This document shows positions 23,010 to 51,100 of a DNA stretch of 64,000 nucleotides, in pieces. Both the position numbers and the translations under genes were made by a program. The notes below the pieces were generated by a model that saw nothing but the letters and a program-made list of their open reading frames with translations, was not told the DNA's origin and did no database searches. The DNA lies in NCBI GenBank assembly GCA_037200925.1, contig JBBCGO010000001.1, forward strand, positions 696,235 through 760,234, given 5' to 3'. Numbering within the stretch: the stretch's first letter is position 1; every line of letters starts with the position of its first letter. This DNA is from Candidatus Doudnabacteria bacterium. Lineage in GTDB: Bacteria > Patescibacteriota > Doudnabacteria > UBA920 > O2-02-FULL-48-8.

Positions 23010-23033
23010 ATTTATTATTTAATTGCACAAAGG

Positions 23034-23060
23034 AAAACAGGACAATTGTCCTGTTTTTTT
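23034..23060 (+). terminator. rho-independent terminator after clpP
   Basis: acaggac-aatt-gtcctgt hairpin plus TTTTTTT. Confidence 0.7.
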
Positions 23061-23075
23061 GTTAACGACTACAGA

Positions 23076-23104
23076 TTGACAAGTACGCTTAAATTTGCTA
23101 TAAT
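23076..23104 (+). promoter_or_regulatory. consensus sigma70-type promoter heading the surface-protein locus
   Basis: Perfect TTGACA (23076-23081), 17-nt spacer, perfect TATAAT (23099-23104). Confidence 0.6.
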
Positions 23105-23278
23105 AATATCAGTAATGGTAAGTTTTGTTAGGTTCGAAACCAAAATAAAAAACAATTGAATATAAGACTACTGAAAAGGCCCAAAATTGGCCATTTTCTG
23201 GTGTTTATTATGTCTTTACCCTTGGTAGCTAAGTAAGTTTAATCAAGGGCCGGTTGTTGAAACAAAAACAAAATCAAA

Positions 23279-23458
23279 ATGTCTTTTGAGGAACTGCCAG
23301 AGCTTCTGACGATCCGCGAGGTGACTCATTTGCTGAATGTTCATCCGAATACCCTTCGGAATTGGGAAAAAGAAGGGCTGATTAATGTTGTCCGGATCGG
23401 TCCCAGAAAAGACAGGCGATATGAGAAGCAGGTTATCAGGAAAATAATGCGGCCGTAA
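23279..23458 (+). CDS. small HTH DNA-binding protein, excisionase/MerR-like HTH_17 family (59 aa); absent from ORF track
   Basis: LLTIREVTHLLNVHPNTLRNWEKEGLINVVRIGPRKDRRY matches the HTH_17 pattern. Its stop lies 3 nt before the ATG of the giant gene. Confidence 0.6.
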   Translation: MSFEELPELLTIREVTHLLNVHPNTLRNWEKEGLINVVRIGPRKDRRYEKQVIRKIMRP

Positions 23459-23461
23459 AAT

Positions 23462-26400
23462 ATGAGCCAAAATAAAATCAAAATTTTAGCGCTCAAAGTC
23501 ACCATAAGTATTTTAATACTTGGTTTTGTCGCACCTGATATTTTTCCGATCCAGGCTTATTTTATTCCTATTGCACAGGCTGCAACGGGTGTGCCGAAGG
23601 CATTTAGCTATCAAGGCCGTTTAACCGATTCAACCGGCGCACTGCTGGGGGGAGCGGGAACTAACTATACTTTTAAATTTTCCATTTGGGACAGTGCCAC
23701 GCCTCCCGGTGGGACACGGTTGTGGCCAGCAAGCCCGCCCGGTTCTGTAACGCTTAATGTTACCCAAGGAGTGTTCAACGTAAATATTGGAGATACGGCG
23801 CATGGTTATCCGGATGCGCTGACATTTGATTTCAATTCCACCGATACGGCATATCTGCAAGTCGAAGTTTTAAATCCTGCTACCTCCACGTACGAAACTT
23901 TATCACCGCGGCAATTGATCGCATCTTCGGGCTATGCGATCAATGCCGGGACAGCTACTGCCTTGCAGACAGCTCGGAATATAAACGGCGTACCTTTCAA
24001 TGGCACAGCGGATATTACTATCCCTTCCAATACAGACGCCGGAGCTTTAACCGGTACGACCCTGGCCGCTAATATAGTTAATTCATCTTTAACTTTGGTG
24101 GGACACCTGGTTTCAGGCACGCTCATCGGCACTCAGACTTTTACCAACAACAATATTTCTGACAGCGGAGGACTCACAATCGACTCGGGTGGCGCTTTGA
24201 ATTTAGGCACATCTACTTCGACCAGTGTTTCGATTGGCAAAACAGGAACCGTCACCACGATTAATGGTTCTCTGACGATCCCGAACTACATTGACTTCAC
24301 TAACTTAACCGCACCTGCCTACAAGGAGGGCCGATTATTCTACGATCCTGTCAGCAAGTCTTTATCTTTCTACAACGATCTCAGTGGGCTTAGTTTGCAT
24401 ATTGGTCAAACACTCTGGACACGTGTAAAAAATGTAACAGGTGCAACAATTCCCAAAGGTTCATCCGTATATTTTAGCGGTGTTGACGCATTTGGTTTTC
24501 CAACAGTTGCTAAAGCCCAGGCAAACAGTCCCGTAACTACCCAATCAGCAGGAGTTACAACCCAGGATATTCCGAACGGAGCTTATGGTTATGCCACCGG
24601 CGTCGGTTTGGTTGAGAACCTTGATACCTCAGCATTCACCGCGGGTGACCGGCTTTTTCTGTCGCCTACAACACCCGGCGGGTTTGTAACAACCCAGCCT
24701 GCTGCTCCGTTTTTTTCAATGCCTATTGGACGGGTCATAAAATCTGATGCTGTCTCAGGTAGTATTGAAGTTGTCGCTACTCCATTCACCATCGGTGCAT
24801 TTACCTCCGGTTCAATGATATTTGCAAGCCCATTAGGTTTGACGGCCCAGGATAATGCCAATCTGTTCTGGGACAATGCAACAAAGCGCTTGGGCATCGG
24901 TGACAATACGCCTGCGGCAACTCTGACCATCGGCAACGGCACAGCCGGCAGCGGTCTGTTTGAAGTGTTCGGGGCCAACGGCAATGTCACGACGCAAGGC
25001 GATATTACTTTGGCAAACGGAGGAGGCAGCATCACCGCAACAGGCGGCGGTCTGACATTAGTTGGCGGAGCGGCTTCCAATCTTTCAACTACGGCTGGCA
25101 ATATTACGTTGCAGCCTGCAGGCGCCGGAACGACTGCAAATGTACAAATTGGAGCAGGTGGGGCTGGATCAGCAACGCCAGATCTTCTGGTCGTGGATGC
25201 GAAATCATCGGCGGGTGATCCGGCCGGTACCAATGGCGCGATCTACTACAATATTGCTAATAACAGATTCCGTTGTTTTGAAAATAATGCGTGGAAAGAT
25301 TGCGATTCCGTCACTGCCGCAACTTTGCAGGTCGCTTATAATAATAGCGGAGCGATTACGACTTCCGGATCCCATGATATTGCTTTCACGCTCACGTCCG
25401 GGAATTTCATCGCTTCCGGGGCTGGCTCAGTAAATCTTACTCCGACCGCTGCTTCATCTTTTACTTCCGGAGGCGCGTTAACTCTGACTGGGGGAGCGGC
25501 ATCCGCATTATCTACCACTTCCGGTGATCTTACTTTGCAAGCCGGTTCAGGTACGGTTTCCCTGGGTAGCTCGACTAATTTGACCGCAGCAACCGGCTTA
25601 ACTATCTCAACAGGATTCGGCAATATAATATTGCATCCGGCAGGAGCCGGAACAACGGCCACTGTCCAGATCGGTTCCGGCGGAGCCGGCTCTACCGCTC
25701 CTGATCTGTTTGGCGTTGACACAAAGTCAGATGCCGGAGATCCGGCAGGATTTAATGGAGCGATGTATTACAATACCAATTCCAACAGTTTCCGCTGTTA
25801 TGAAAACGGGGCATGGAAAAATTGCGATACGACAGGCGGAACTACAACATTACAATCGGCTTACAGCGCCGGCGCAACTATCACGACCGGAAGCTCAACT
25901 GATATTGTATTTACGCTCGCTTCCGGAAACTTCGATGTTTCAGGGGCCGGCTCGGTAAATCTTACACCCACAGGTAACTCCAGCTTTACTTCTGACGCAA
26001 ATTTAACACTCACTTCCGGTACGGCAACTACATGGGGCACAACTGCCGGAGATCTGACTTTGCAAGTTAACGGCGTCGGGACTACAGGCAGTGTTCATAT
26101 TGGAGCTGGAGCTCCCGGTTCCAACGGCCCTGATCTGTTCGGCCTTGATGTGAAATCAACAGCCGGCGATCCGGCCGGGTATAATGGAGCGATGTATTAC
26201 AACGGCTCATCAAACGTTTTCCGTTGTTTTGAAAATGGAGCATGGAAAGATTGCGGTGCGACGGGAAGCGGAGGAGGATTGTCACTGCAGCAAACGTACA
26301 TAAATGGTCCAACTATTACTACGACCGCGTCAACTGATCTGGCTTTGATCCTTGCTTCCGGTGATTTCACAGCCTCGGGAGCCGGTTCGGTAAATCTTAA

Positions 26401-29400
26401 CCCGACAGGTGCTTCCAGTTTTACTTCCGGCGGAGCATTAACGCTTACCGGCGGAGCGGCATCTGTTTTCGGAACGAGTGCCGGAGATCTGACTTTGCAA
26501 GCTGCCGGAAATGGAACTACGGCAAATGTTCATATTGGCGCAGGAGGTGTCGGGTCCGCCACGCCGGATCTGCTTGCTTTGGATGTGAAATCTACAAGCG
26601 GAGACCCGACCGGTGTCAACGGGTCAATGTACTACAATGCGAGTACAAACAGGTTCAGATGTTATGAAAATAACGCTTGGAAAGATTGTGATATCAGCGG
26701 TACTGATACTTTGCAAACTGTTTATAATAATGGCGCAACTATTGTTACAGCCGGTTCCGTTCCAATCACGTTTAATCTTGCGTCGGGAAATTTTAATGTC
26801 TCCGGCGCAGGGTCTGTAAATCTGACCCCAACCGGAGCGTTAACGCTCACCGGAGGCGCTGCGTCAACATTCTCAACAAGTTCCGGCGCGCTCACAATCG
26901 ACTCAGCAGCTACTTTGAATTTAGGCACCACTAATGCCACCGGAGTCTCCATCGGTAAAACAGGAACTGTCGCCACTGTGAACGGTTCGCTTACGATACC
27001 AAATTACATTGATTTTACGAACACGGTAAAGCCGCCGTATTCTGAAGGCCGAGTTTTTTATGACACAACTGACAAGACTCTTGCATATTATAATGATGCC
27101 TCTAACAGTACGCTGAACATCGGTCAGGAAGAATGGATCCGTGTTAAGAACATTACCGGCACCGATATTGCCGATGGCAAAGTAGTATATATTAGCGGTT
27201 CCTCAGGAGGCATACCGACAGTTGCGTTGGCCAGGGCTGATAGTCCAACTACTTCTCAGGCGGCCGGCATCACAACTAATGCGATTCCCAACGGCAGCAT
27301 CAGTTATATTACTAATTTTGGATTAATTCATAAGGAGAATACCGCGTCGTTCAGTGCGGGAGACCAAATATTCCTTTCAGCCACATCTGCGGGTGATTAC
27401 ACGGCCACCAGGCCCTCTTCCCCGAATCTTACGGTAAAACTTGGTTATATCGCAGTGTCAGATTCAACTTTAGGCATTGTTCTGGCAAATATCGCGCCAG
27501 CGCCGTTTCAATCTGGAATTTTAGGTACCGGCAGTATCCCGTTTGCCAATTCCAGCGGCCTGTTGATTTCAAATAACAACAATTTATTTTGGGACCAGGT
27601 AAATAACCGTCTCGGTATCGGTGACAATACGCCCGCAGCAACTCTGACCATCGGCAATGGCACACCCGGCAGCGCCTTGTTTGAAGTTTTTGGGTCAACT
27701 GGAAATATAACGACGAAAGGGGATATTAATTTGGCTGCCGGCGGTACTATTACAGGTACCGGTCCTTTGGCCATTACTGCAACTGGAGCAAATGCTCTAA
27801 CTTTAGATACAGGAACTACGGGTACAATCAATATCGGTACCGGGATTTCTGGCAAAACTATAAATATTGGCACAGACAACACCGCTGCTGATACGATTGT
27901 CATCGGTTCTTCTCTGGATACTCTTAAACTGGGAAAGTTCAATACGGCTAACGCCATTATCTATACTGCGAATGGAACTACCGATGGCACTCTGGCCTCA
28001 ATAGCCAACGGTACGACAGGGCAATGTTTGGTAGCCACCACAGGGCTTGCCCCTGCTTGGGGAACGTGTCCTGCAGATGCAAGTGCTCTTACAGGAACCA
28101 CTCTTGCAGCCAGTGTAGTTAATTCTTCCTTAACATCAGTTGGAACGTTAACAGGCCTGACCGTCACTGCTCCCATCATAGGTTCTATCACTGGTTCCTC
28201 CGGTTCTACTACCGGCAATGCTGCAACTGCCACCACTCTCGAAACTGCCAGACTCATCAACGGAGTATCATTCAACGGTTCTGCTGACATCACGGTAGCT
28301 GCCGATGCCGGCACTCTGACCGGAAACACTCTTGCTGCGAATGTGGTTAATTCATCTTTAACTTCAGTCGGACCCTTAACAGGTCTTACTGTCATTGCTC
28401 CTATTGCCGGCAGCGTCACCGGTTCAGCCGCCACTGTTACAGATGCTGCACAACCGGCTATTACTTCCGTCGGAACGTTAACAGGTCTTACGGTAACAGC
28501 GCCGATAGTTGGAAGTGTGACAGGAAGTTCCGGTTCTACCACAGGCAATGCTGCTACTGCTACAAAGTTGGAAACGCCTCGTCTCATCAACGGAGTTGCT
28601 TTTGACGGCTCAGCAGATATTACGATCACTGCCGTTGCTGCAGCAGGAACTCTGACAGGTACAACCCTTGCAGCCAATGTGGTTAATTCTTCCTTAACAT
28701 CTGTAGGAACATTGGCAGGATTGACTGTCACAGCTCCGATAGTAGGAAGTGTTACTGGTTCCTCCGGTTCTACCACAGGCAATGCGGCTACAGCTACCAC
28801 TCTTGCAACCCCAAGACTAATCAACGGGGTATCCTTCAATGGTTCTGCCGACATCACAGTTACAGCAGCAGCAGGAACTCTGACAGGAACAACCCTGGCA
28901 GCAGGAGTCACAGCTTCATCTCTAACATCTGTAGGAACATTGGCAGGCTTGACTGTCACAGCTCCGATAGTAGGAAGTATCACAGGCAATGCGGCAACAG
29001 CAACCACTGCTACTTCTGCCACCAACCTTGCCGGAGGCTTGGGAGGCCAGATCCCTTACCAATCAGCTGCAGGAACAACAGCATTCTTAGCCAATGGTAC
29101 TGCAGGACAAGTTCTTCAAAGCAACGGCACAACCCTGGCTCCTACTTGGGTTGCAGCTGCTACCGGAACACTGACCGGATTATCGGTTGTATCAGCAAAT
29201 GGTTTTGCCGGATCTTCCAGCGGCGGCACCACCCCTGCTATTACTATCTCAACCACGATCACAGGATTACTAAAGGGGAATGGAACAGCCATATCTGCTG
29301 CCACAGCAGGCACTGATTATTCCCTGGGAACCTCTGCTTTAGCCACCGGTATCTTAAAGAGCACCACCACTACAGGGGCATTAAGTATTGCAGTGCCGGC

Positions 29401-32400
29401 GGACTTCCCGGTATTGAACCAGAACACTACTGGCTCTGCCGCAACATTAACAACCCCCCGCCTAATCAACGGGGTATCCTTCAATGGTTCTGCTGACATC
29501 ACAGTTACAGCAGCAGCAGGAACTCTGACAGGAACAACCCTGGCAGCAGGAGTCACAGCTTCATCTCTAACATCTGTAGGAACATTGGCAGGCTTGACTG
29601 TCACAGCTCCGATAGTAGGAAGTATCACAGGCAATGCGGCAACAGCAACCACTGCTACTTCTGCCACTAACCTTGCCGGAGGATTAGGAGGCCAGATCCC
29701 TTACCAATCAGCTGCAGGAACAACAGCATTCTTAGCCAATGGTACTGCAGGACAAGTTCTTCAAAGCAACGGCACAACATTAGCTCCGACTTGGGTAGTT
29801 CCAAGTTCAATAGCAGCAGCAGGAACTCTGACAGGAACCACTCTTGCAGCCAATGTGGTTAATTCATCCTTAACATCTGTAGGAACATTGGCAGGCCTTA
29901 CTGTCACAGCTCCGATAGTAGGAAGTATCACAGGTTCCTCCGGTTCTACCACAGGCAATGCTGCTACAGCTACCACTCTTGCAACCCCCCGCCTAATCAA
30001 CGGGGTATCATTCAACGGTTCTGCCGACATCACAGTTACAGCAGCAGCAGGAACTCTGACAGGAACAACCCTGGCAGCAGGAGTCACAGCTTCATCTCTA
30101 ACATCTGTAGGAACATTGGCAGGATTGACTGTCACAGCTCCGATAGTAGGAAGTATTACGGGGAATGCCGGGAGTGCGACCAAGCTAGCAACACCTCGCC
30201 TCATCAACGGAGTTGCTTTTGACGGCACTGCCGATATTACAATCACCGCAGCTGCGGCAGCTGGTACTCTGACCGGCACTACTCTGGCTGCCAATGTGGT
30301 CAACTCGTCCTTAACCTCAGTAGGAGCTTTGGTTTCCGGAACACAGATCGCTTCTCAAACGTTTACCACCAACAACATTGCAGACTCAGGAGCCTTGACC
30401 ATAACTTCAGGGGGAGCTGGCAATTTGGCGCTCAACTCTGCTTCAGGCATAGTGACTTCCAACGGCACAACCGTAACATTGGGAGGCTCAGCCACCATCA
30501 ACGGAGGCAATGCCGCTGCCGGCACCTTAACCTTAGTCTCCACTACCAATGGCACTAAGGGTGATATTCAATTTTTCTCATCCGCTAACAAGATTACTTC
30601 AGCCGGCGCTCTGACCATTGCCGGACCAATAGTTGCTTCCAACTTCACCGGCACATTGACCGGCACCAACACCGGAGACCAGACCATAACCTTAACCGGA
30701 GATGTCACCGGATCAGGCACCGGTACATTTGCCGCTACGATTGCCCCGAATGCTGTGACGACAGGTAAGATCCTTGACGGTACAATTTTAAATGCTGATC
30801 TTGCTAATTCAACAATAGGATTGCTTATTGGTACATCTGGAACAGATGTAGGCGTAACGGGTTCTCCCGCATCACTTGGGGGCAGCCTTACCCTCAATAT
30901 TCCAAACGCCTCCGCAACCAACCGTGGAGTGCTTACCGCAGCCGACTGGGCAGCGTTTAATTCTAAACAGGCAGCTTTTGGATATACGCCGGAAGATGTT
31001 GCTAATAAATCATCAAATGTCAATCTTGGCACTTCCAATATTTTATATCCAACTCAAAATGCGGTAAAAACTTATGTTGACAATCTTACCACTGGCCTCA
31101 TTTGGCAAAACCCGATAGAAAATGCCGGCGTTATTGCCGATACGGCAACTCCGGTCGGATCTCCAGTGAGCGGTGATTCTTACATAATTAATACCGGCGG
31201 CAATACCGGCGTTTGGGCGGGTTTCAGTGCCGGGGACCTGGTCCAGTACCAAGGGACTACATGGGTAAAGGTCAAAAGTCTTGTGGTCGGAGACCGCTTT
31301 GGCGTGAGTTTCTTGTCTCCGACAGTTCCATCCGGAGCCATGACAGGAAAAAGTGACAACCTGGTACAAGTCAGCGGCGGAACTCCCGGCGCATTTACGT
31401 ATACCTTTATCGCCCCAGTAAACAACTATGCAGTGTTTGATCAAAATCCAAACAGTATGAATTACGGAGTGTCCTTCACTTATACCTCATCACTCGGAGA
31501 ATGGGTTGCGCTTTCCGCAAATACCAGATTATCGGCAGGCAACGGTCTGCAAACGGTCGGAACTACCGTAAGTTTAGGAGCCTTGACTGCGGACTGGAAC
31601 CAGACAGGTGTGTTCAATATCAACACCGCAGGCAATGTCAATGTTAACGGCGGAACCCTTGGCACAACAGCATTAACCGGGAATCTTTTTAATACTACAG
31701 CGACAACTTTAAATATTGGCGGAGCTGCGACGAATATTGTCTTGGGAGCCGCAGGCGCAACCCTTACAGGGGGCGGAGCGCTTACTATCAGTTCAGCTCC
31801 AACGACTGCTTTAACTCTTGATTCCGGCACCACCGGAACCGTTAACCTTGCCACAGGCAATAATGGCAAGACCGTCAACATCGGCACCGGTACTTCCGGA
31901 GATATTATTAACATCGGTACGAATAATACAACTGCCGACACCATCTCTATCGGCTCTGCTCTTGATTCACTTAGTATCTCGTCGGCTCACTTTACAGCCA
32001 CCTCAGCCGGAGCGTTGACCATTTCCGGAGCTTTGTCTGCCTCCAACTTCTCCGGCAGTTCATCCGGCACAAACACCGGAGACCAGACTTCTGTTTCCGG
32101 CAATGCCGGTACGGCAACAGCCCTTCAAACACCTCGAGCTATTAATGGAGTAAATTTTGATGGAACTGCTCCGATTACCATCACGGCCGCTGCCGGAACC
32201 TTAACCGGGACCGTCCTGGCTGCCAATGTAGTTAACTCTTCTCTAACATCAGTAGGAACCTTAGCAGGCTTAACTGTCACAGCTCCGATAGTAGGAAGTA
32301 TCACAGGCAATGCGGCTACTGCTACCACTGCTACTTCTGCCACTAACCTTGCCGGAGGATTAGGAGGACAGATCCCTTACCAATCAGCTGCAGGAACAAC

Positions 32401-36895: not shown

Positions 36896-36897
36896 AA

Positions 36898-39489
36898 ATG
36901 ACGGAGAGAAAAACCAAATTAATATTAATAGCAGTTATTTCTGCAGGAATATTCGGAGTCGGATTTTATTTTCTTGCGTTGCCTCATCTCAATTTGAATA
37001 AAACGGCAACTACTGTAACCAAGTTGTTTGGCTCAGTATTTCCGACGCCTAAATTCCCTTCAACCGGAACGATAGAAACGCCGGTTGAAGGAACTCCCAC
37101 CGCAGTAACACCTGATGTAAACACTCCGGCTGCAGGAACATCTGCCGGTACGACACCAGCTATTGTAATACCACTTGCAACTAGACAAGCATTTGCGAGA
37201 CCGATCACCGATACGACACCACAATTGCTCGGCAAGACAATATTTAGAAAGAAAGACCAGGCGACGATACCGGTTCATCCTCGTTTCAAGAACGGTAATA
37301 CAAATATTGCTTTTTATGCATTGTGTCCGACCGTGGCTTGTCCTGCCGTCGGTACCACGGCTTCACCCAAGTATAATTTTTTTGCAGAAGATACAACTAC
37401 CGGTGATCAACCGTTTTCAAATTATTGGACTCCTGACCCTTCTTTTCATAAAATTGTAGTAGTAGAATATGTTAATGATAATCACCAATTTACGTGTTCG
37501 GATCTTAGCTTAGATCAGTGTATTGCCAATCGACATTTCATCAGTCAAACTTCTATACAACTTGTAGATGACAATGCGATAACTTTTCATATAATTACGC
37601 TCGTTGAGAACGGGACCGACGGTACGGCCGTTCCTTCTGACTTTATGGTTCACGTCAAGAATGCCGGTGCGGATGTTGCAGCAAGTCCTGCATCCGGAAC
37701 GGCAGTATTACCGGGAACTTTATATACACTTTCTGCCGGCACCTATGCTGTCAGTGAGGATGCAAATGCTCTTTACACCCAAAGCTTCAGCGGGGATTGT
37801 GATTTGACCGGCGGCATTACTCTGGTGGCAGGGGATGACAAGACATGTACCATCACCAACACTTTCGGTCCGCCGGTGACAACAACGGCCACCCTGCACG
37901 TCATTAAACAGGTTAATAACAGTAGCGGCGGCACGGCAGTTGCTTCCGACTTTAATATTCACGTCAAGAATGCCGGAGCGGATGTCGCAGGAAGCCCGAC
38001 AGTCGGAACAGCTGCGCCGGGATCTTTATATTCACTCGCTGTCGGCATATACAACGTCAGCGAAGATGCCAACACTTCTTATACGCCAAGCTTTAGCGGT
38101 AATTGTGATATAACCGGCAGCATTACTCTGGTGGCAGGGGATGACAAGACATGTACCATCACCAACAATCAAATATCTGCAAACACGACACCGGCTGCTC
38201 TTCATGTCATTAAGCTCGTAGTTAATGGAAGTGACGGCATCGCAACTTCTTCTGACTTTAATATCCACGTAAAGAATGCAGGTGGGGATGTTGTGGGAAG
38301 TCCTGCGGTCGGAGTTGCAGCACCCGGAACTTTGTATACACTTTCTGCAGGCGCGTATGCTGTCAGTGAGGATGCGAATGCCCTATACACGCAAAGCTTC
38401 AGCGGGGATTGTGATGCTGGTGGCAATGTGACGTTGCTGGCTGGCGACAATAAGACATGTACCATCACCAACACTCAAATTTCTTCAGTACCGATAGTAC
38501 CGCCACCTGGGACGGGTACAGTTTTGGCAACACTTCATGTAATCAAACTCGTGGTTAATAGCAGCGACAGCACGGCGGTTGCATCCGACTTTAATATCCA
38601 CGTAAAGAATGCCGATGTGGATGTGCCGGGGAGCCCGGCAGTCGGGGCTGCGACGCCCGGAACTTCTTATTCTCTCTCTCCCGGCACGGTTGTAATAAGC
38701 GAAGATGCCAACATCGCTTATGTACAAAGCTTTAGCGGGGATTGTGATTCGACCGGCAATATTACGCTGTCGGTTGGCGACGACAAGACATGTACGATTA
38801 CCAACACCAATATTTCTGTTCCGGTACCTACCCCTATTCCCGAGCCCACCCCAACTCCAACTACCTCGCCAGACACCACAGCACCGGTCATCATACTTAT
38901 TGGCGATCCAACGATTAATCTAAATGTCGGCGACACATATATAGAACAAGGTGCTACCGCAACAGATGATGTCGATAGCTCGGTTGCAGTTGTGGTCAGC
39001 GGGACTGTGGACACATCTACAGCCGGTACTTATATAATTCACTACAACGCCACAGACGCTGCCGACAACCCTGCGACCGAAGTTACCCGAACGATCAATG
39101 TAGCCGAATCAGTCCCAGCTTTACCCAGTACGGGATCGGGTCCTCTTATGCTAAGTAATTCATCAGGTATTATTATACTGAATGTGATCCTCGGGATAAT
39201 TTTGGCTTCGCTTGTTTTCTTGTTTATAAGGAAACGCAGGGGTAGCCCGGTTGTTAAACAGGATCAGCAAATAGACAGCACCGCGATTAGTTCTGCCCCA
39301 ACTGCACTCGTCGGGCGTAATAATCCCGAACAACCCACAGCGTCAGGGGATCATACAAGCACCGGCAATAATCAGATCGATAAGCCGCCGATCCAGACCC
39401 CCACCCCAGAGCCTACTCCGCTCCCAGCACCAAAAATAACTCCCGAACCTACACAGCCGGAAAACAATGATAAGGAAGTTTTGAAATAA
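36898..39489 (+). CDS. cell-surface repeat protein with Ig-like (DUF5011-like) domain and LPSTG sorting-signal-like motif
   Basis: N-terminal TM/signal. Five tandem ~100-aa repeats. Ig-like segment (PVIILIGDPTINLNVGDTYIEQGATATDDVDSS...GTYIIHYNATDAADN). LPSTGSG, a hydrophobic stretch and RKRRG, followed by an unusual ~100-aa Pro/Thr-rich tail. Confidence 0.75.
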   Translation: MTERKTKLILIAVISAGIFGVGFYFLALPHLNLNKTATTVTKLFGSVFPTPKFPSTGTIETPVEGTPTAVTPDVNTPAAGTSAGTTPAIVIPLATRQAFARPITDTTPQLLGKTIFRKKDQATIPVHPRFKNGNTNIAFYALCPTVACPAVGTTASPKYNFFAEDTTTGDQPFSNYWTPDPSFHKIVVVEYVNDNHQFTCSDLSLDQCIANRHFISQTSIQLVDDNAITFHIITLVENGTDGTAVPSDFMVHVKNAGADVAASPASGTAVLPGTLYTLSAGTYAVSEDANALYTQSFSGDCDLTGGITLVAGDDKTCTITNTFGPPVTTTATLHVIKQVNNSSGGTAVASDFNIHVKNAGADVAGSPTVGTAAPGSLYSLAVGIYNVSEDANTSYTPSFSGNCDITGSITLVAGDDKTCTITNNQISANTTPAALHVIKLVVNGSDGIATSSDFNIHVKNAGGDVVGSPAVGVAAPGTLYTLSAGAYAVSEDANALYTQSFSGDCDAGGNVTLLAGDNKTCTITNTQISSVPIVPPPGTGTVLATLHVIKLVVNSSDSTAVASDFNIHVKNADVDVPGSPAVGAATPGTSYSLSPGTVVISEDANIAYVQSFSGDCDSTGNITLSVGDDKTCTITNTNISVPVPTPIPEPTPTPTTSPDTTAPVIILIGDPTINLNVGDTYIEQGATATDDVDSSVAVVVSGTVDTSTAGTYIIHYNATDAADNPATEVTRTINVAESVPALPSTGSGPLMLSNSSGIIILNVILGIILASLVFLFIRKRRGSPVVKQDQQIDSTAISSAPTALVGRNNPEQPTASGDHTSTGNNQIDKPPIQTPTPEPTPLPAPKITPEPTQPENNDKEVLK
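37560..38830 (+). repeat. five tandem ~300-nt coding repeats (each with Cys pair SG.CD...KTCTITN)
   Basis: LHVIK..VN.S.G.A.ASDFNIHVKNAG.DV.GSP.VG.AAPG.LY.L..G.Y.VSEDAN..YT.SFSGDCD..G.ITL.AGDDKTCTITN repeated five times. Confidence 0.7.
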
Positions 39490-39568
39490 GAACCGGGAAC
39501 GGTTGACTTGCCATTTGAAATAATATTTGTTATCATTTGGGTACAAGAAATTAATATAAACGAAACAA

Positions 39569-40114
39569 ATGCCAAATGAAATAGATACTCCACCAGCAGG
39601 TGGAAGCACTCCTACACCAACTCCGGCTCCGAGCGAGCCGATACCAGGCGGTGTTAATCGCTGGCGCTGGGCGAACTGGACAACCAAAGCCGTAATGACT
39701 TTGGCAGTCTTACTGCTTTTAGGAGCAGTTGGAACCGCAGGATTTTTTTATAAGCAGTTGACGGATATTAAGAAAGACCCAAACAAGGTGGCTGCTGATG
39801 AAACTAATGCCACTATCAGTGCAATTGGCAAATTGATAGTTTTGCCGACCGATGAACAGCCAACGCTGGCGACCGTAACCGATCCGAGCAAACTTGCGGA
39901 TCAGCCGTTCTTTGCTTCCGCCAAAATGGGCGATAAGGTTTTGATCTACACCAATGCCAAGAAAGCCATCCTATACGATCCTGTCGCTAATAAGATCGTG
40001 GAAGTAGCGCCGATCAATATCGGCAATACTGCCGCGGCTCCAAGTGCCGTATCCGGCGCTTCAACTGACGCTTCAAAAACCTCCGCACCCGCAACCCAAA
40101 CCCCAAAGAAATAA
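39569..40114 (+). CDS. membrane-anchored protein, unknown function
   Basis: Pro/Thr-rich N-terminus, one TM helix, extracytoplasmic domain. Confidence 0.5.
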   Translation: MPNEIDTPPAGGSTPTPTPAPSEPIPGGVNRWRWANWTTKAVMTLAVLLLLGAVGTAGFFYKQLTDIKKDPNKVAADETNATISAIGKLIVLPTDEQPTLATVTDPSKLADQPFFASAKMGDKVLIYTNAKKAILYDPVANKIVEVAPINIGNTAAAPSAVSGASTDASKTSAPATQTPKK

Positions 40115-40192
40115 AAATAGAAGAAATAGCAAACAGTAAGAAATAAATAGAATAAAACCCAGGTATGAGCCAGGGTTTTATTTTGCTATACT

Positions 40193-41548
40193 TTGCTTAA
40201 GAAAATGAAACTGAAAGAAACAAATATTGTCGTCCTGTTTACTATAGGCGGACTGCTGATTTTATCCATAAATCTAGCACAAGCTACAGATTATTCTTCC
40301 GCCAATTTCACCGTGACCAATCCGGTAATTGATACAGGCAGTGCTTCGTCGTCATCCGCTAATTTTGGTCTGGGGCAATCTTCCTCCCAAACCGCCATCG
40401 GTAGATCTTCATCCGGCAGTTTTCAGGTCTGGAGCGGGTTTCAATATTTTTTCAAAGTCAATGCCAATACGTTAACCGCGACCGCGGGAGACGGCTTGAT
40501 TGATTTGAGCTGGACCGTGCCGGCAACGTTTTTGGGGATCGCGGTTTCTTCATATGAAGTCGGTGTTGGGACCGTGTCCGGTTCCTATGTTTTTACCGAC
40601 GTAGGCAATGTTACAAGTTTTTCCAAAACGGGCTTGGCCAACGGCACGCCGTATTTTTTCAAGATCAAAGCCAAATCAGCCGGCGGTTTGCTGTTGGTGT
40701 TTTCCAACGAAGCATCAGCCACACCCGTGGGAGCAACTTATCCGACTCCTTACGCTACTCCTTATCAAACGCCGGGTGGAGGTGGTGGGGGAGGAGGCGG
40801 AGGCGGGTCACCACCCCCTCCACCGTCCGGTACCGCGAGTATTGTCCTGAAAGGTTTGGCGTCACCCGGAGCTTCTGTATTTGTTTTGCGTGACGGGGCC
40901 GTGGCCGCCACGAGCACTGCTGATCCGGCAGCGGGATTCAGCATAACCATAAGCGGCCTTGGCACAGGCATTTATTCGTTTACTCTTTATGCGGAGGATG
41001 TAAAGGGAGTGCGGACCTCTACCACCAGTTTCATACAAGCGTTGACCAATGGCGTCAGCACTACGGTTGATAATATTTTTTTGGGCCCCAGCATCGGCAC
41101 GGATAAAAGTGTTGTGAAGCTCGGCGATACTCTGAATATTTTCGGCTATACCGCGCCGACCTCGCAAGTTTCGGTATTCGTGAATTCTGCCCCGGTCATA
41201 ACTAAGGTTACCGCGGCCCAAAGCGGCGCCTGGTTTCAGGCCTTCAATACAGCCGTACTCGACCAAGGTGCGCACACCACCCGTTCACAGTCAGCCAAGG
41301 ACAATTTACTTTCGGTTTACAGCAATACCGTGGACTTTCAGGTAGGCGATACTTCCGTGCCAATCACTCCCGGCACCTGCGGCCGGTCAGACCTTAACTG
41401 CGACGGCAAGGTCAACTTGGTAGATTTTTCAATCTTGCTGTTCTTTTGGCAGCAGACCAACCCGTCAAATCCCAGAGCCGATATTAAGAAAGACGGCGTT
41501 GTCGATCTGACGGATTTTTCAATATTATTATTTGATTGGTCTGGCTGA
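40193..41548 (+). CDS. secreted protein with fibronectin type III domain, Gly/Pro linker and C-terminal dockerin-like repeats
   Basis: Signal peptide. FN3-like (LSWTVPA...YEV...NGTPYFFKIKA). G13-P5 linker. Two dockerin-type Ca-binding repeats (DLNCDGKVNLVDFSILL, DIKKDGVVDLTDFSILL). Confidence 0.7.
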   Translation: MLKKMKLKETNIVVLFTIGGLLILSINLAQATDYSSANFTVTNPVIDTGSASSSSANFGLGQSSSQTAIGRSSSGSFQVWSGFQYFFKVNANTLTATAGDGLIDLSWTVPATFLGIAVSSYEVGVGTVSGSYVFTDVGNVTSFSKTGLANGTPYFFKIKAKSAGGLLLVFSNEASATPVGATYPTPYATPYQTPGGGGGGGGGGGSPPPPPSGTASIVLKGLASPGASVFVLRDGAVAATSTADPAAGFSITISGLGTGIYSFTLYAEDVKGVRTSTTSFIQALTNGVSTTVDNIFLGPSIGTDKSVVKLGDTLNIFGYTAPTSQVSVFVNSAPVITKVTAAQSGAWFQAFNTAVLDQGAHTTRSQSAKDNLLSVYSNTVDFQVGDTSVPITPGTCGRSDLNCDGKVNLVDFSILLFFWQQTNPSNPRADIKKDGVVDLTDFSILLFDWSG

Positions 41549-41549
41549 T

Positions 41550-42779
41550 ATGAAGAAAAAAAATAAAAATCGAATTTGCGAGCGAAGCGAAGCAATCTAT
41601 TCCATGTCTAAGATTGCTTCGTCGCTGCGCTCCTCGCAAATGCCTATTATGCTTGGCTTGGTTTTATTTATCTTGTTTTTTAGCGTCTGCTCTCGAGCTC
41701 ACGCAGCCGTTCTCTTTTCCGGCGCTGCCAATCAGGACGTTTACGAAGGCCAGACGTTTGTAGTGGATTGGTATCTTGATTCCGAAGGCAAATCCATCAA
41801 TTCCCTTGATCTGAAACTGAATTTTTCCAAGGATACGTTGGAAGTATCCAATGCCACCGCAGGCAACAGCCTGATCAGTCTTTGGATAAAAGATCCGACC
41901 GCTGACAATTCAAACGGCAATGTTGAACTGGTGGGCGGGATCACAAACGGCATTAACAGCAACAAAATTCCGGTTTTCAGGACAGTATTTCGGGCCAAAA
42001 CCGCGGGGGCCGGATTTATTAATCTGGATCCCTCTTCAGTTGTTTTGTTGAATGACGGATCAGGAAGCAATGAACCGCTTAGATTTAAGAACGAAACGTT
42101 CGATGTCCTTCCTAAAGGTTTTATACCCATCCTAATCACCTCAACCAGCCATCCTGATCCCGATGCGTGGTACAAAAATCGTGACGTGGTGATCAAATTT
42201 ACCCCCAAAACGGGCGAAGACTACAGTTACAGTTTCAGTTCAAACATAGATATTATTCCGGATGATAAAAAACAGGATGTGCCGGCGCAGATTTCGTACC
42301 CAAACATGCCGGACGGCATTTATTACTTTAAATTGAATTCCAAAGTAGGAGATGCTAATTGGAGCGAGGCGGCAGTGTTTCGGGTCCAGATCGATGCCAC
42401 ACCACCTGAACCTTTCAGTCCGGCCATCGCTTCAGATCCGACGATCTTCGGCGGAAATAAATTTGTAAGTTTTTCCACAGTGGACAAAATCTCGGGAATA
42501 TCGTATTATAAAGTCCAAGTTGGTTTGTTCGGCCGATCCATTGAAACACAAAGTCCCTATAAATTGTCAAAACCTTTCGTCGGCGATTCGGTTCAGGTTG
42601 AAGCCGTAGATATAGCGGGGAACATGCGAGATGCCAGCATTGCGTTTCCCGGTTTTCTTTCAACAAAAGCATTTGAATGGATTTTAGTTTTGATAGGTCT
42701 TGCGGCAATTGCCCTGGGTTTTCGAAAACAAATCACAAAATTCATAACAAAAAGAAATGAAAATAACATCTCAACATAA
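41550..42779 (+). CDS. membrane-anchored cohesin-like domain protein 1
   Basis: N-terminal signal region. Cohesin-like beta-sandwich (VVDWYLDSEGKSINSLDLKLNFSKDTLEV...VFRTVFRAKTAGAGFINLDPSSVVLLNDGSGS). Second beta domain. C-terminal TM helix. Start codon uncertain (41550, 41604 or 41640). Confidence 0.6.
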   Translation: MKKKNKNRICERSEAIYSMSKIASSLRSSQMPIMLGLVLFILFFSVCSRAHAAVLFSGAANQDVYEGQTFVVDWYLDSEGKSINSLDLKLNFSKDTLEVSNATAGNSLISLWIKDPTADNSNGNVELVGGITNGINSNKIPVFRTVFRAKTAGAGFINLDPSSVVLLNDGSGSNEPLRFKNETFDVLPKGFIPILITSTSHPDPDAWYKNRDVVIKFTPKTGEDYSYSFSSNIDIIPDDKKQDVPAQISYPNMPDGIYYFKLNSKVGDANWSEAAVFRVQIDATPPEPFSPAIASDPTIFGGNKFVSFSTVDKISGISYYKVQVGLFGRSIETQSPYKLSKPFVGDSVQVEAVDIAGNMRDASIAFPGFLSTKAFEWILVLIGLAAIALGFRKQITKFITKRNENNIST

Positions 42780-43758
42780 ATCCGGAATGACAATCCTCGG
42801 TTTTCTGGCGGTTTTTTTGTTTTTGCCCCAAATTTCTCACGCCGCAACCATATTCACCACTCCCTCCTCAGGAAGTTTTGGAGTAGGCTCTTCTTTTACA
42901 GTTTCCATAAAAACCAACACGCAGGGAGCTGCGGTCAACACTGCTGAAGCCACGATCTCTTATTCCACCGACACCCTGGACCTGGTCTCGGTCAAACAAG
43001 GTTCAACTTTTTTCCTCTCCGCACCCGGTTCGCCTGCCAAAGGAACAGGCACCGCTTATTTTGGCGGGGGAGTGCCCTCACCGGGTTACAATGGTAGCGG
43101 GGGCACTCTCGGTACCGCCACATTCCGCGCCAAGGCAGCGGGGGCAGCGACTGTCACTATCAGTTCCGGCAAGGTTTTATTGAATGACGGCAATGGCACT
43201 GATGCTTTTTCAGGCGGTTCAGGCGGCCGGTTTAATATTACGGCACCGGCGCCTTACGCAACCCCTTCAACATCACCGGCAGGCGCGTTAACCGTAACAG
43301 TGACATCCGGTACACATCCGGTGCAGGATAATTCGTACAGCAGCCGCGATGTTATTCTGAACTGGGATAGGCCGGCTGGTGTTTTTGGCTATAGTTTTGC
43401 GCTGGACCAAATTCCGGATACGATCCCTGACAATACATTAGATACGACGGTCACCACTACCAAGACATACACCGGTTTAGCGGACGGGACCTGGTATTTT
43501 CATATCAAGGCTCGTACGCAATCTTCTTCTGCCGGGTTTGGACCGACTACAAATTTTAAAATCCAAATTAATACCCAAAATCCAGCATCGCTGACTCCTC
43601 CGGCACCGATAGCGGCACCGGGTTCGGCAAGCGTCGGGTTTTTTCAGAGCACCGTGTCCGTTCCGGTCTATATTTTGTATTCACTGATTGTGCTGATCCT
43701 GATCTTGTCCGGATTTTTAATTTGGTTTATGGCTAAGAGCAGTAAGAAAAAGCGTTGA
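42757..43758 (+). CDS. membrane-anchored cohesin-like domain protein 2
   Basis: Signal peptide. Cohesin-like (VNTAEATISYSTDTLDLVSVKQG...GTATFRAKAAGAATVTISSGKVLLNDGNGT). Conserved second domain (GTWYFHIKAR). C-terminal TM plus KKKR. Confidence 0.6.
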   Translation: MKITSQHKSGMTILGFLAVFLFLPQISHAATIFTTPSSGSFGVGSSFTVSIKTNTQGAAVNTAEATISYSTDTLDLVSVKQGSTFFLSAPGSPAKGTGTAYFGGGVPSPGYNGSGGTLGTATFRAKAAGAATVTISSGKVLLNDGNGTDAFSGGSGGRFNITAPAPYATPSTSPAGALTVTVTSGTHPVQDNSYSSRDVILNWDRPAGVFGYSFALDQIPDTIPDNTLDTTVTTTKTYTGLADGTWYFHIKARTQSSSAGFGPTTNFKIQINTQNPASLTPPAPIAAPGSASVGFFQSTVSVPVYILYSLIVLILILSGFLIWFMAKSSKKKR

Positions 43759-45179
43759 TGAAAAAAATATTAATTGTTTTCGGAATCGTATTTGCTTTCG
43801 CGGTTTTGCCGCGGATGGTTTTGGCTGCAACTTTATATGCCAGCCCCTCCTCAGGAAGTTTTGGAGTAGGCTCTTCTTTTACAGTTTCCATAAAAACCAA
43901 CACGCAGGGAGCTGCGGTCAACACTGCTGAAGCCACGATCTCTTATTCCACCGACACCCTGGACCTGGTCTCGGTCAAACAAGGTTCAACTTTTTTCCTC
44001 TCCGCACCCGGTTCGCCTGCCAAAGGAACAGGCACCGCTTATTTTGGCGGGGGATTACCGACTCCAGGATATAATGATACTGCCGGCGTACTCGGCACCA
44101 TGACGTTCCGCGCCAAAGCTTCAGGCACGGGAATTGTTACGATCGATTCAGGAAAAGTTTTGTTGAATGACGGCAATGGCACCAATGCTTTTACTTCCAG
44201 CTCAGGCGGCCGATTTACGATAACAGCAGCATCGCTCCCAGCCGGCGCGGTCACAGTAACAAGCGTCACGGATCCGGTTTCTGATGATTGGTATAACCAA
44301 CCCAATGCGACTTTCAGCTGGGATCGGCCGGCCGGCGTTTTTGGTTATAGTTTTGTGCTGGATCAAATTCCTGATACTGTCCCGGATGATATTTTAGACA
44401 CGACTATCACAACTTCTAAATCATACACGGGTTTAACAGACGGAACTTGGTATTTCCATATTAAAGCGCGGGTGCAATCCGCATCTGCCGGGTTTGGCCG
44501 GACCACGGATTATAAAATTCAGGTTGATACGTCGTCGTCGCCGGCTTTTGAGGTGAAACTGCTCGGGGGAACTGATGCTAATCATGTGACCCAAACACCC
44601 ACGATAATATTTGAGGCAATGGATGCAACATCCGGCATTGATCATTATGAAATAGTCCTTGATAACCGGACAATCGCAAATAAAGCTGACTCGCCATATA
44701 CTTTTGATAAGATCGCAACCCCGGGCGCGCATTTAATCAAGGTTTTGGCTTTTGATAAAGCGGGTAACGAACAAACTGCCCAGCTGCCGATCCAGATCTC
44801 TGTGGCGGGCGGATTTTTGCAAAAAACCTGGACGCTCCCTGTATATCTTTTGCTGATCGTCAATCTGCTGATCCTGCTGATAATAACGCTGATCCTGTGG
44901 CTGATATTCAAGCGGAAGAAAAAGCGGACTGCTGTATCTGACGAGATCGCGGATATTCAAGCCGAGATCGATCACAGTTTGGAGCAACTGAAGCAGAGGA
45001 TCAACAATAAGCTTTTGACTCTGACAGCGCGGTCAACCCAGGAAATATTTAATAAGGAAGAACAAGCGTCTAAAGATATTTCGGTCAGCGTGAACAAAAC
45101 CCGCAAGAGCGTGGATAAGAAGATAGGCAAACTTTCCAGAAAAATTTCGAAACAAAAAGAAGACAAAATTTTAGAATAA
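43755..45179 (+). CDS. membrane-anchored cohesin-like domain protein 3 (with extra domain and coiled-coil tail)
   Basis: Paralog of 42757..43758 over the first ~250 aa. An additional beta domain. TM helix. Charged C-terminal tail. Confidence 0.6.
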   Translation: MMKKILIVFGIVFAFAVLPRMVLAATLYASPSSGSFGVGSSFTVSIKTNTQGAAVNTAEATISYSTDTLDLVSVKQGSTFFLSAPGSPAKGTGTAYFGGGLPTPGYNDTAGVLGTMTFRAKASGTGIVTIDSGKVLLNDGNGTNAFTSSSGGRFTITAASLPAGAVTVTSVTDPVSDDWYNQPNATFSWDRPAGVFGYSFVLDQIPDTVPDDILDTTITTSKSYTGLTDGTWYFHIKARVQSASAGFGRTTDYKIQVDTSSSPAFEVKLLGGTDANHVTQTPTIIFEAMDATSGIDHYEIVLDNRTIANKADSPYTFDKIATPGAHLIKVLAFDKAGNEQTAQLPIQISVAGGFLQKTWTLPVYLLLIVNLLILLIITLILWLIFKRKKKRTAVSDEIADIQAEIDHSLEQLKQRINNKLLTLTARSTQEIFNKEEQASKDISVSVNKTRKSVDKKIGKLSRKISKQKEDKILE

Positions 45180-45183
45180 AAAG

Positions 45184-45212
45184 AAAACGCGGATCCAGAG
45201 GATTCGCGTTTT
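45184..45212. terminator. bidirectional intrinsic terminator closing the surface locus
   Basis: AAAA-cgcgga-tccagagga-ttcgcg-TTTT. Paralogous to 45949-45977. Confidence 0.6.
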
Positions 45213-45222: not shown

Positions 45223-45540
45223 TTAGGGTTGATTTTCCAGCAGAGAGCGGACCTTGTCCAGGAACTGCTGCTCTGTGAAAGGCCATGTGATCTCCGGTAT
45301 TCCGTTTCCTGCCAGAACCGGCGTAGTCACGAGGATTGTTTGGCCTGACAAAGATAAGTCTTTAACTACGATCCCGCCTCGATCGCCGATTTCATCGATG
45401 ACGATCAGATCTTGCCGGCTGCAGAATCTTTTGAGCTCATCCGCGTCCCTCGCACGCATAACCTGATACTCGTCATGCAGCCAGGTATGAAAGCGGTCAA
45501 GCTTGGTCTTCCTGATGCCTGCGATGAGAACTTTTTTCAT
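45223..45540 (-). CDS. atypical (pseudo-)receiver domain protein
   Basis: REC-like beta-alpha pattern (KVLIAG, DLIVIDEIG, TILVTT, PFTEQQFLDKV) but lacking the N-terminal acidic pair. Confidence 0.45.
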   Translation of the reverse strand: MKKVLIAGIRKTKLDRFHTWLHDEYQVMRARDADELKRFCSRQDLIVIDEIGDRGGIVVKDLSLSGQTILVTTPVLAGNGIPEITWPFTEQQFLDKVRSLLENQP

Positions 45541-45948: not shown

Positions 45949-45977
45949 AAAACGCGGATTACGGGAATCCGCGTTTT
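45949..45977. terminator. bidirectional terminator downstream of the 45986 gene
   Basis: aaaacgcggatt-acggg-aatccgcgtttt, a perfect 12-bp stem. Confidence 0.6.
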
Positions 45978-49160: not shown

Positions 49161-49171
49161 AATTATAGCAG
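49161..49171 (-). promoter_or_regulatory. extended -10 promoter (cTGCTATAATt) for the 48663 gene
   Basis: TGn plus perfect TATAAT on the minus strand. Confidence 0.4.
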
Positions 49172-49258
49172 ATTTTAGTGTTATTGTCAAGATACCTATT
49201 TGACTAAACGTTTTAGTATAGCCAACAAGGGCATCTTATGAACAAAAGTACCGCCAGC

Positions 49259-49640: not shown

Positions 49641-51100
<1,460 letters not shown>

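Follow-up and report, generated by a model that had tools for sequence, protein, structure and literature searches.

The locus described here raises the question of what a bacterium with a reduced genome would build from a block of adjacent surface-protein genes in which one product of 4,477 amino acids (aa) stands beside proteins carrying cohesin and dockerin modules. It is situated in a 64,000-nucleotide (nt) stretch of contig JBBCGO010000001.1 (GenBank assembly GCA_037200925.1; Candidatus Doudnabacteria bacterium), referred to below as the window. Eight genes are encoded exclusively on the plus strand between positions 23279 and 45179, as indicated both by open reading frame (ORF) listing and by the public annotation of JBBCBH010000057.1 (GCA_037975565.1), a 964-kb contig from a Candidatus Doudnabacteria metagenome-assembled genome (MAG) of the Patescibacteria, or candidate phyla radiation (CPR), in which a protein 100% identical to one of the eight, P4, is annotated. 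The products are, in gene order, a helix-turn-helix (HTH) protein, the 4,477-aa giant protein and six proteins termed P2 to P7; their genes are separated, in that order, by 3, 2, 79, ~90 and 1 nt, followed by overlaps of 23 nt and 1 nt. An initial annotation had described a single-direction locus with tiny or overlapping gaps in a reduced-genome organism, and had interpreted it as a system that builds a surface structure by cohesin-dockerin docking. The layout and the type of organism (a CPR Doudnabacteria MAG) were both verified, and the interpretation agreed with the domain and synteny results presented below, except that two of the members it had listed, the HTH protein and P2, are not conserved parts, while the function is one that we infer. 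The reading favoured here, to which a probability of roughly 0.55 is assigned, is that the conserved genes form a cassette of membrane-anchored cohesin stalks holding a dockerin-tipped rod, which would serve as the base of a variable giant attachment fibre.

P4, encoded at 40193/40205-41548 (plus strand, as for all eight genes; 451/447 aa, the later start being that of the public annotation), was found to consist of a signal peptide, a conserved N-terminal segment (aa 30-90), an FN3 domain, a Gly/Pro linker, two immunoglobulin-like (Ig-like) domains and a C-terminal dockerin (41369-41545). Pfam matches were obtained for fn3, Big_6 and Dockerin_1 (PF00404; aa 399-445), the latter scoring 25.1 bits against a gathering threshold of 22.9, which confirms the earlier description of P4 as an FN3 and dockerin protein; a precomputed PF00404 match is also present on many P4 orthologues. 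The dockerin is composed of two duplicated Ca2+-loop/helix segments of ~22 residues (D-x-[DN]-x-[DN]-G...D), DLNCDGKVNLVDFSILLFFW and DIKKDGVVDLTDFSILLFDW, for which an alignment of 29 sequences shows no variation at D400, D404, D411 and D441 and hardly any at D430. Comparison of the P4 family profile with solved dockerins yielded 2y3n_B (5.3e-5) and 4fl4_A (2.8e-4), as well as 2mte, 1daq and 2vn6_B. In the AlphaFold2 (AF2) model of P4, the FN3 and Ig-like domains were confidently predicted, and Foldseek matched this model to FN3/Ig arrays, including Ig-array adhesins. The segment at aa 30-90 was modelled with a predicted local distance difference test (pLDDT) value of ~33 and includes some of the most conserved residues of the protein; being conserved yet predicted to be unfolded in the monomer, it fits a partner-binding segment. 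The P4 family contains more than 300 full-length relatives of a near-constant length of ~435 aa.

The candidate partners of this dockerin are encoded immediately downstream. P6 (333 aa; 42757-43758, cohesin at 42841-43245) and P7 (474/473 aa; 43755/43758-45179, the later start again being that of the public annotation, cohesin at 43824-44228) match Pfam Cohesin (PF00963) at 29.8 and 31.6 bits, respectively, versus a gathering threshold of 24.1. In P6, the cohesin is followed by an Ig-like domain and a C-terminal transmembrane (TM) helix at aa 304-322. In P7, AF2 and Pfam indicated a signal peptide, the cohesin, two Ig-like domains (Pfam Big_7), a TM helix and, on the cytoplasmic side, a helical coiled-coil tail of ~85 aa. 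The two proteins are 66% identical and their genes have the DNA repeats D9 (88%) and D11 in common, indicative of P6 being a recent paralogue of P7. The AF2 model of P7 reached a pLDDT of 87, with values above 90 over the β-sandwich at aa 24-157, and was matched by Foldseek to 2w1n (cohesin plus FN3; 9.5e-12) and, at target TM-scores of 0.68-0.73, to 1g1k_A, 2vn5, 2vn6, 6kge_A and 2xdh. The best fold matches of P7 thus include non-cellulosomal cohesins from outside plant-wall degradation, namely those of Archaeoglobus fulgidus (2xdh) and of Clostridium perfringens GH84C (2w1n), and in the latter an FN3-like domain follows the cohesin, as in P7. Those cohesins are, however, isolated modules in enzymes or soluble proteins, whereas the present locus is an operon-like series of membrane cohesins with a dedicated dockerin rod.

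P5 (415/409 aa; 41532/41550-42779, the later start being that of the public annotation) has a signal peptide, a cohesin-like domain (41703-42110), Ig-like domains and a C-terminal TM helix at aa 379-397. P5 itself has no Pfam Cohesin match, and it is listed without a family hit in the public gene table, whereas the NCBI labels of P4, P6 and P7 are those of dockerin- or cohesin-domain proteins. When the P5 family was aligned with the P6/P7 family using hhalign, a probability of 100% and an E value of 5.4e-49 were obtained over the cohesin region; furthermore, 6/58 P5 orthologues match Pfam Cohesin, and a hidden Markov model (HMM) of the family cohesin matches aa 58-193 of P5 at 2.8e-31. By transitive homology, as read from profile comparison only, P5 would be a diverged member of the cohesin group. 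Of the three membrane-anchored cohesin-like proteins initially proposed, P6 and P7 are therefore supported by Pfam, and P5 by profile comparison only. The cohesin and dockerin assignments as such withstood HMM, profile and structure comparison, none of which pointed to unrelated folds. Hydrophobic N-terminal helices resembling signal sequences are present on P4, P5, P6 and P7, and C-terminal TM helices on P5, P6 and P7.

The window contains exactly one dockerin, that of P4, and three cohesins. Related loci likewise have one dockerin and typically two to three cohesins each, and every cohesin protein, in the window and in all of the more than 80 related loci, has a single, N-terminal cohesin in a chain of 243-744 aa. 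Given what these modules are known to do in cellulosomes, and given this conserved one-to-few stoichiometry, the dockerin of P4 probably docks on the cohesins of P5 and/or P6/P7.

Relatives of P4 were sought in one genome per species of GTDB r232, and at least 576 species genomes were found to encode one. The best 80 loci all derive from Patescibacteria-type MAGs, representing Doudna-, Magasanik-, Uhr-, Kaiser-, Giovannoni-, Taylor-, Nomura- and Vogelbacteria, Paceibacteria and Peribacteraceae, and full-length P4 relatives were absent from 2.9 million viral contigs. ORFs called in the best related loci (labelled L followed by a number) were compared with the proteins of the window and mutually; downstream counts refer to 69 loci with at least 3.5 kb visible 3' of P4, and upstream counts to 58 informative loci. 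A cohesin-family gene was observed 3' of P4 on the same strand in 69/69 loci, with a median gap of 3 nt, and two such genes, one of the P5 type and one of the P6/P7 type, were present in 62/69, with a median gap of -22 nt. Upstream, P3 directly precedes P4 in 34/58 loci, and a same-strand ORF of at least 900 aa is located within four genes of P4 in 44/58. The flanks of the cassette vary by lineage and are of a housekeeping nature (aminoacyl-tRNA synthetase, UvrA, YchF, Mur ligase, GAPDH, LepA or SpoIID); conservation therefore applies to the cassette as a unit. As judged from gene content, its conserved core is represented by P3, P4, P5 and P6/P7, together with a giant protein upstream. The expectation that the genes are kept together in related genomes thus held for P3 to P7 and the upstream giant, though not for the HTH gene and P2.

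Several loci depart from this scheme in detail. L003 encodes a further dockerin protein and has one more cohesin-family gene, both within a few kb of the cassette. An ORF of ~100 aa (cluster c8) is situated between the P4 and P5 homologues in L059, L065, L073 and L082, and before P4 in L007 and L050; two P5-family ORFs, apparently extended upstream over a c8-like ORF, match Pfam 23S_rRNA_IVP/bAvd-like (four-helix bundle), and these matches presumably belong to c8. IS200/Y1-transposase-like ORFs with an HxH motif (cluster c6) are found beside or inside the cassette in L011, L016, L020, L036, L042 and L057.

The membrane protein P3 (181 aa; 39569-40114), publicly labelled 'hypothetical', has a single TM segment at aa 42-60, in agreement with its initial description as membrane-anchored, and a strongly conserved extracytoplasmic domain of ~75 aa. 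Alignment across lineages showed 35-50% identity. Its relatives amount to 3,613 clusters, which are devoid of Pfam domains, save for some that are fused to LytR_C (PF13399); P3 itself has no Pfam match, and its profile found no relative among PDB sequences. A C-terminal LytR_C domain is carried by the P3-family proteins L006:8576-9433, P0293, P0294, P0300 and P0332; this domain is otherwise found on cell-envelope LCP proteins. In a number of loci (L003, L007, L008, L034, L036, L055, L062, L064, L068 and L069), P3 is replaced or accompanied, just upstream of P4, by a single-pass membrane family of ~160 aa (cluster c5), which has the motif YQAVFLxxGQVYFGKL...LVKLGSELHGPED and no Pfam match.

The giant protein is encoded at 23462-36895 and starts with a hydrophobic segment (aa 6-24) that corresponds to a signal or anchor helix. 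The remainder is a long repetitive mosaic rich in Thr, Gly, Ala and Ser, in which the motif TPRxINGVxF(D/N)G(S/T)A occurs in 12 copies and DUF2793-like segments are present. Its repetitive character, already remarked upon in the initial annotation, is also evident at the DNA level: a 1,278-nt stretch is duplicated at 98.7% identity (28916-30192 versus 32237-33514), and three copies of a 531-nt unit are present at >99% (29453-29983, 32774-33304 and 33758-34287). These duplications could reflect recent recombination-driven expansion, or uncertainty of the metagenome assembly as to the repeat number. Among PHROG tail-fibre families, matches were obtained to phrog_1833 (2.3e-68, 12 stretches), phrog_20242 (1.1e-54) and phrog_9574 (2.5e-26). 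A tblastn search with a 711-aa block of the repeats found nothing in 50,697 phage genomes, a result to which the low-complexity filter may contribute. At the C-terminus (aa 4270-4473; 36269-36880), a Gly_rich_2 domain (PF21722) was identified at 5.2e-10, with 40.1 bits against a cut-off of 24.3, and represents a candidate for the distal tip of the protein.

At its opposite end, following the hydrophobic segment, the giant protein carries a head domain of ~130 aa (~aa 42-170; 23585-23971), defined by phmmer and alignment, which has no Pfam match. An exhaustive phmmer search against 1.84 billion cluster representatives identified this domain in 3,886 of them, always at the N-terminus, in proteins of very different lengths of up to 4,694 aa; the named matches are all from CPR bacteria, and one of the carriers is a Kaiserbacteria protein of 4,629 aa. 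Among the 2.9 million viral contigs, only five weak matches were found. One weak relative of the head domain (42% over ~80 aa) starts a 526-aa ORF, L088:7977-9557, on IMG/VR contig UViG_3300034082_004705. A signal peptide followed by the head domain opens the cassette-linked giants of L011, L012, L043, L074 and L083, which represent most of those with a visible 5' end. The C-termini of other giants are mostly Pro/Thr/Glu-rich tails, often preceded by ...FSWxALAVKNxKxFES, and are unlike the Gly-rich end observed here. As both C-termini and bodies are dissimilar, the giants correspond to one another in position and not as sequence orthologues, with the exception of the head domain. Conservation of the proximal end combined with a variable distal body is the pattern of tail fibres, in which the conserved end is the part mounted on the base, and the head domain is therefore a candidate for the attachment end of the giant. 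That the giant fibre is indeed mounted on a cohesin-dockerin base is given somewhat less than an even chance.

In these respects, the giant resembles phage long tail fibres and giant adhesins such as SiiE and the 1.5-MDa ice-binding adhesin, being long and repetitive, matching tail-fibre HMMs and having a conserved N-terminus and variable distal parts; Ig-array adhesins, moreover, were retrieved in the fold comparisons of both P4 and P7. It differs from them in that neither a phage context nor a type I secretion signal or RTX repeats are present, and in that the head domain is almost absent from viral contigs. Attachment of such a fibre to a cohesin-dockerin base would be new.

On the favoured reading, all parts, which carry export signals, would be exported by the Sec pathway, after which P5, P6 and P7 would remain in the membrane as cohesin stalks. 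The Ca-binding dockerin of P4 would plug into a cohesin, giving rise to a tether of approximately six β-sandwich domains that would be able to span the wall. The N-terminal segment of P4, possibly together with P3, would then bind the head domain of the giant, and the latter would project outward, in the manner of a tail fibre, as a fibre serving adhesion to, or recognition of, a host or partner cell, ending here in the glycine-rich tip. In the present genome, the strong consensus promoter would drive the block, and the HTH protein and the LPSTG-containing Ig-repeat protein P2 would be genome-specific additions. From this arrangement we infer an attachment role for the cassette.

A number of observations weigh against this reading. 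The dockerin of P4 (aa 390-451) was modelled at a pLDDT of only 40-69, in an AF2 prediction that was based on the 29-sequence alignment and contained neither Ca2+ nor a partner, and the P6/P7 family profile reaches solved cohesins by sequence at an E value of only 0.16, so that the link to these is carried by the fold match. A large upstream ORF is missing from 14/58 loci, and the cassette at L045 (Kaiserbacteria) has no giant ORF directly upstream, although the 4,629-aa Kaiserbacteria carrier of the head domain is recorded on a contig of equal length (197,315 bp), which may be the same one. Most giants of other lineages have the head domain alone, or nothing detectable, in common with the giant described here. 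Neither a cohesin nor a dockerin was found on the giant or on P2, which leaves P4 as the single dockerin partner for the three cohesins of the locus; among related loci, no giant carries a cohesin, a dockerin or the N-terminal segment of P4. Adjacency is consequently the one observation that would join the fibre to the base, and that reduced genomes retain the core so widely would be compatible, too, with a housekeeping role in the envelope.

Such a role is at the centre of the explanation that survives best among the alternatives, although it is considered unlikely. According to this explanation, the cassette is an envelope or S-layer scaffold in which P4 is an abundant outer-layer subunit, its N-terminal segment makes the lattice contacts and its dockerin fixes it to P5/P7 stalks; the giant would be a neighbour with a common export or expression context and would not be attached through the cassette. 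The very wide conservation of the core, with usually one P4 of constant length (~435 aa) per locus, is what may be expected of a structural part, and the perfect consensus promoter suggests high expression. A cell-wall context is suggested by the LytR_C domain on some P3 relatives and by a membrane-anchored Beta-lactamase2-family protein (class-A/PBP-like, SxxK...SDN...KxG, ~335 aa), which was encountered in 16 cases inside the cassette, in the interval between the giant and P3/P4, and which hints, by its family, at a peptidoglycan-related step. This hydrolase is absent from the locus in the window; it is encoded in L006, L013, L015, L017 (two copies, with a Pfam match of 1.1e-35 for the L017 copy), L024, L028, L031, L059, L060, L065, L075, L082, L084 and L085. 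Adjacency of the giant is, in addition, not universal, and the literature searched names no S-layer protein of CPR bacteria. Conversely, the sequence gives no indication of an ability to form lattices, the similarity of P4 to known S-layer proteins is limited to generic Ig/FN3 folds, and the adjacency of a giant in 44/58 loci is far above chance. The two-component S-layers of archaea offer an analogy, one of design only. In Sulfolobus, SlaA is a canopy protein on the membrane stalk protein SlaB, which is built of β-sandwich domains; P7, a stalk with a helical tail, and secreted P4 on top of it would resemble this arrangement, although the connection in archaea is not a cohesin-dockerin one.

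It is decidedly improbable that the cassette is a loose neighbourhood of independent surface proteins, whose modules bind partners elsewhere or host molecules and which are brought together by co-regulation or co-export only. Peer et al. are said to have noted in 2009 that non-cellulosomal cohesin and dockerin modules often have no obvious partner, which would favour this possibility, as do the second dockerin protein and extra cohesin-family gene near the cassette of L003 and the possible internal promoter at 39508-39536 described below. It is opposed by the ratio of one dockerin to two to three cohesins, the fixed order P4-P5-P6/P7 and the abutting or overlapping frames, all of which are kept in distant lineages despite changing flanks; fixed order, overlapping frames and a stable ratio across lineages are what is usually seen when gene products interact physically.

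Cellulosomes are defined by their cohesin and dockerin modules, and a cellulosome-like complex that binds or degrades polysaccharide, for example cell-wall glycans of the host, was also considered; for a Saccharibacterium, Wang et al. 2023 (PMC10633639) described an essential dockerin-domain protein and speculated that it targets host glycans. This explanation is very hard to sustain, since Pfam and NCBIfam identified no glycoside hydrolase, carbohydrate-binding module (CBM) or other enzyme domain in any of the eight proteins, as the initial annotation had stated for enzymes in general. Each cohesin protein, moreover, has a single cohesin, no multi-cohesin scaffoldin is present and the sole dockerin of the locus is located on a non-catalytic FN3/Ig rod. 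With multi-cohesin scaffoldin, dockerin-bearing enzymes and CBM all missing, the cellulosome reading was rejected. The Saccharibacterial dockerin protein, SEML1_0315, was likewise rejected as an orthologue of P4, being the 927-aa product of an isolated gene outside this type of cassette, with no cohesin neighbours.

The last alternative, namely that the locus is a prophage or tailocin remnant and the giant a decayed tail fibre from a phage that had integrated, has next to no probability and was rejected for want of a virion-gene context: despite the strong PHROG tail-fibre matches and the Gly_rich_2 and DUF2793-like segments, no other phage gene was found in or beside the locus, the neighbours are cellular, the repeat block has no tblastn match in the phage genomes, full-length P4 relatives are absent and the head domain is nearly absent from viral contigs, and the giant has a signal or anchor helix and a conserved position in cellular genomes.

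The closest mechanistic relative of the cassette is the cell-anchoring step of cellulosomes, as represented by SdbA/OlpB of Acetivibrio thermocellus and the dockerin of CipA. The cassette resembles it in that a secreted protein devoid of catalytic function, here P4, would use its C-terminal dockerin to dock on a cell-bound cohesin, in that the dockerin consists of duplicated Ca-loop/helix segments and in that the cohesin has the same β-sandwich fold. The anchor differs, being a C-terminal TM helix here and SLH repeats there, and the present system is further set apart by single cohesins, the absence of enzymes and CBMs, a non-cellulolytic CPR host, the extra protein P3 and linked giant genes. 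A biological parallel is provided by the Omnitrophota, in which giant ORFs with non-cellulosomal dockerins have been proposed to function in cell-cell adhesion (PMC10066038; bioRxiv 10.1101/2023.11.21.568195). These are also ultra-small, host-dependent bacteria with giant surface proteins and non-cellulosomal dockerins; they belong to another phylum, however, their dockerins lie within the giant itself and no dedicated cohesin genes have been described for them, whereas here a separate dockerin/cohesin gene set adjoins the giant.

The two genes of the locus that fall outside the conserved core appear to be extras of this genome. The HTH gene (59 aa; 23279-23458) was correctly named, its product matching Pfam MerR (9.8e-10) and HTH_17 (1.4e-6), and it possibly encodes a regulator. 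No homologue was detected among the small ORFs of the more than 80 related loci, few of which reach so far upstream; its absence elsewhere is weakly supported because most loci stop short of the 5' end of the giant gene. P2 (863 aa; 36898-39489) has an N-terminal helix, four SpaA_2 (prealbumin-like) repeats, a Bact_surface_Ig-like domain, an LPSTG sequence (aa 742-746; 39121-39135), a TM helix (aa 758-776), RKRRG and an 87-aa Pro/Thr-rich tail, and its gene holds the DNA repeats D6, D7 and D10. The features for which it had been called an LPXTG-type repeat protein are thus in place, i.e. repeats, LPSTG, helix and RKRRG, though not as a canonical sortase signal: in sortase substrates a short basic tail ends the protein, and P2 is atypical because 87 further residues come after the helix and RKRRG. 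A motif search found no TLxTC sortase motif in any ORF of the window. Homologues of P2 were seen in copies of the same contig only. On the basis of these comparisons, the HTH gene and P2 are regarded as specific to this genome.

The 5' boundary of the locus is marked by a terminator-like hairpin (23031-23060, plus strand; -15.9 kcal/mol, z -3.95, followed by a U-run) at the 3' end of the nusA-clpP unit; the Pfam-assigned neighbours on this side are a methyltransferase, a UPF0102 gene, nusA and clpP. Sixteen bases beyond this hairpin lies a σ70 consensus promoter, TTGACA-N17-(TG)-TATAAT (23076-23104, plus strand), which matches at 12/12 positions and has the TG extension. The perfect promoter reported initially is thus real, though it is one of four perfect TTGACA-N16-18-TATAAT sites in the window, where 0.02 would be expected by chance. 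These sites are located at 772-801 (minus), 21067-21094 (plus), 23076-23104 (plus) and 49162-49190 (minus), and those at 23076 and 49162 have a common ...TGCTATAAT extended -10 context. Given four sites versus 0.02 expected, they are taken to be functional promoters of the organism, while not being special to this locus, and this CPR genome seems to use textbook σ70 promoters. The 5' leader between promoter and HTH gene (23105-23278, ~175 nt) shows moderate structure (z -2.0) and contains a GGCC...GGCC hairpin followed by AUUUUCU; Rfam and tRNA scans detected no RNA gene in the leader or in the whole locus. A promoter-like site, TTGCCA-N17-(TG)-TATCAT (39508-39536, plus strand), lies in the gap between P2 and P3 and is identified by its consensus match (10/12 with TG). 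It may be an internal promoter for separate transcription of the conserved P3-P7 module; with such a site present, a single transcript across the locus is not assured.

At the 3' end, a 13-bp hairpin (45184-45212) is positioned between P7 and a convergent minus-strand gene (45223-45540), 11 nt from the stop of the latter. It had been presented as a bidirectional terminator, and the hairpin itself is well supported in both orientations (-18.0 kcal/mol, z -3.8 on the plus strand; -15.8 kcal/mol on the minus strand), while a convincing U-tract is seen on the minus strand only, that of the plus strand being short and partly within the stem; a consensus terminator scan did not pick up the structure. 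From its fold and position it is interpreted as a terminator for both directions, with the better U-tract on the minus strand. A second hairpin, at 45949-45977 (minus strand), has arms nearly identical to those of the first, AAAACGCGGATTCCCGTAATCCGCGTTTT and AAAACGCGGATCCAGAGGATTCGCGTTTT, which suggests that a terminator-like palindrome recurs in this genome. The 3' flank consists of small hypothetical genes and a 16S rRNA gene, which is short, with 1,459 nt matched (49641-51099, plus strand). A tRNA-Ile(GAT)/tRNA-Ala(TGC) pair, usually located in the 16S-23S spacer, is found at 63306-63380 and 63696-63769 (plus strand), ~12 kb from the 16S gene, and no 23S gene is present within the window; the rRNA genes therefore appear to be unlinked. 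The first 6,000 nt of the window (1-6000) have a G+C content of 0.54-0.59, versus 0.43-0.51 over its remainder.

The initial annotation had not recognised the combination as a described system, and the literature searched is in accordance with this: no description of the cassette was found in full texts that mention cohesin or dockerin alongside the Patescibacteria, the CPR or one of their lineages, a search outside which most subscription journals lie. As far as can be told, the P3-P4-P5-P6/P7 cassette linked to head-domain giants is undescribed. CPR bacteria, or Patescibacteria, account for a large part of bacterial diversity, and their mode of life is one of attachment to other cells. The proteins specific to their lineages are for the most part membrane or surface proteins that lack annotation (PMC6744442). 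The cassette joins P3 (3,613 clusters), the P4 family, two cohesin lineages and the head domain (3,886 long proteins) in one gene set with a testable assembly rule, and is a promising candidate for the means by which such bacteria construct their surface or keep hold of hosts.

If the favoured reading is correct, the cassette would provide handles for localising or pulling down the attachment or envelope apparatus, it would explain the siting of giant, variable genes in tiny genomes, and it would extend the cohesin-dockerin principle from enzyme scaffolding to construction of the cell envelope. A bolder proposition, and a rather unlikely one at present, is that the cassette represents a lineage-defining envelope organelle of CPR bacteria, being either a wall-spanning cohesin-dockerin socket for interchangeable giant fibres, held through their head domain, or the structure that forms and anchors the S-layer observed on cells of this group. 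Should this be true, the cassette would constitute the molecular basis of the host-recognition surface in ultra-small episymbionts, and the first general use of cohesin and dockerin for envelope building outside polysaccharide degradation.

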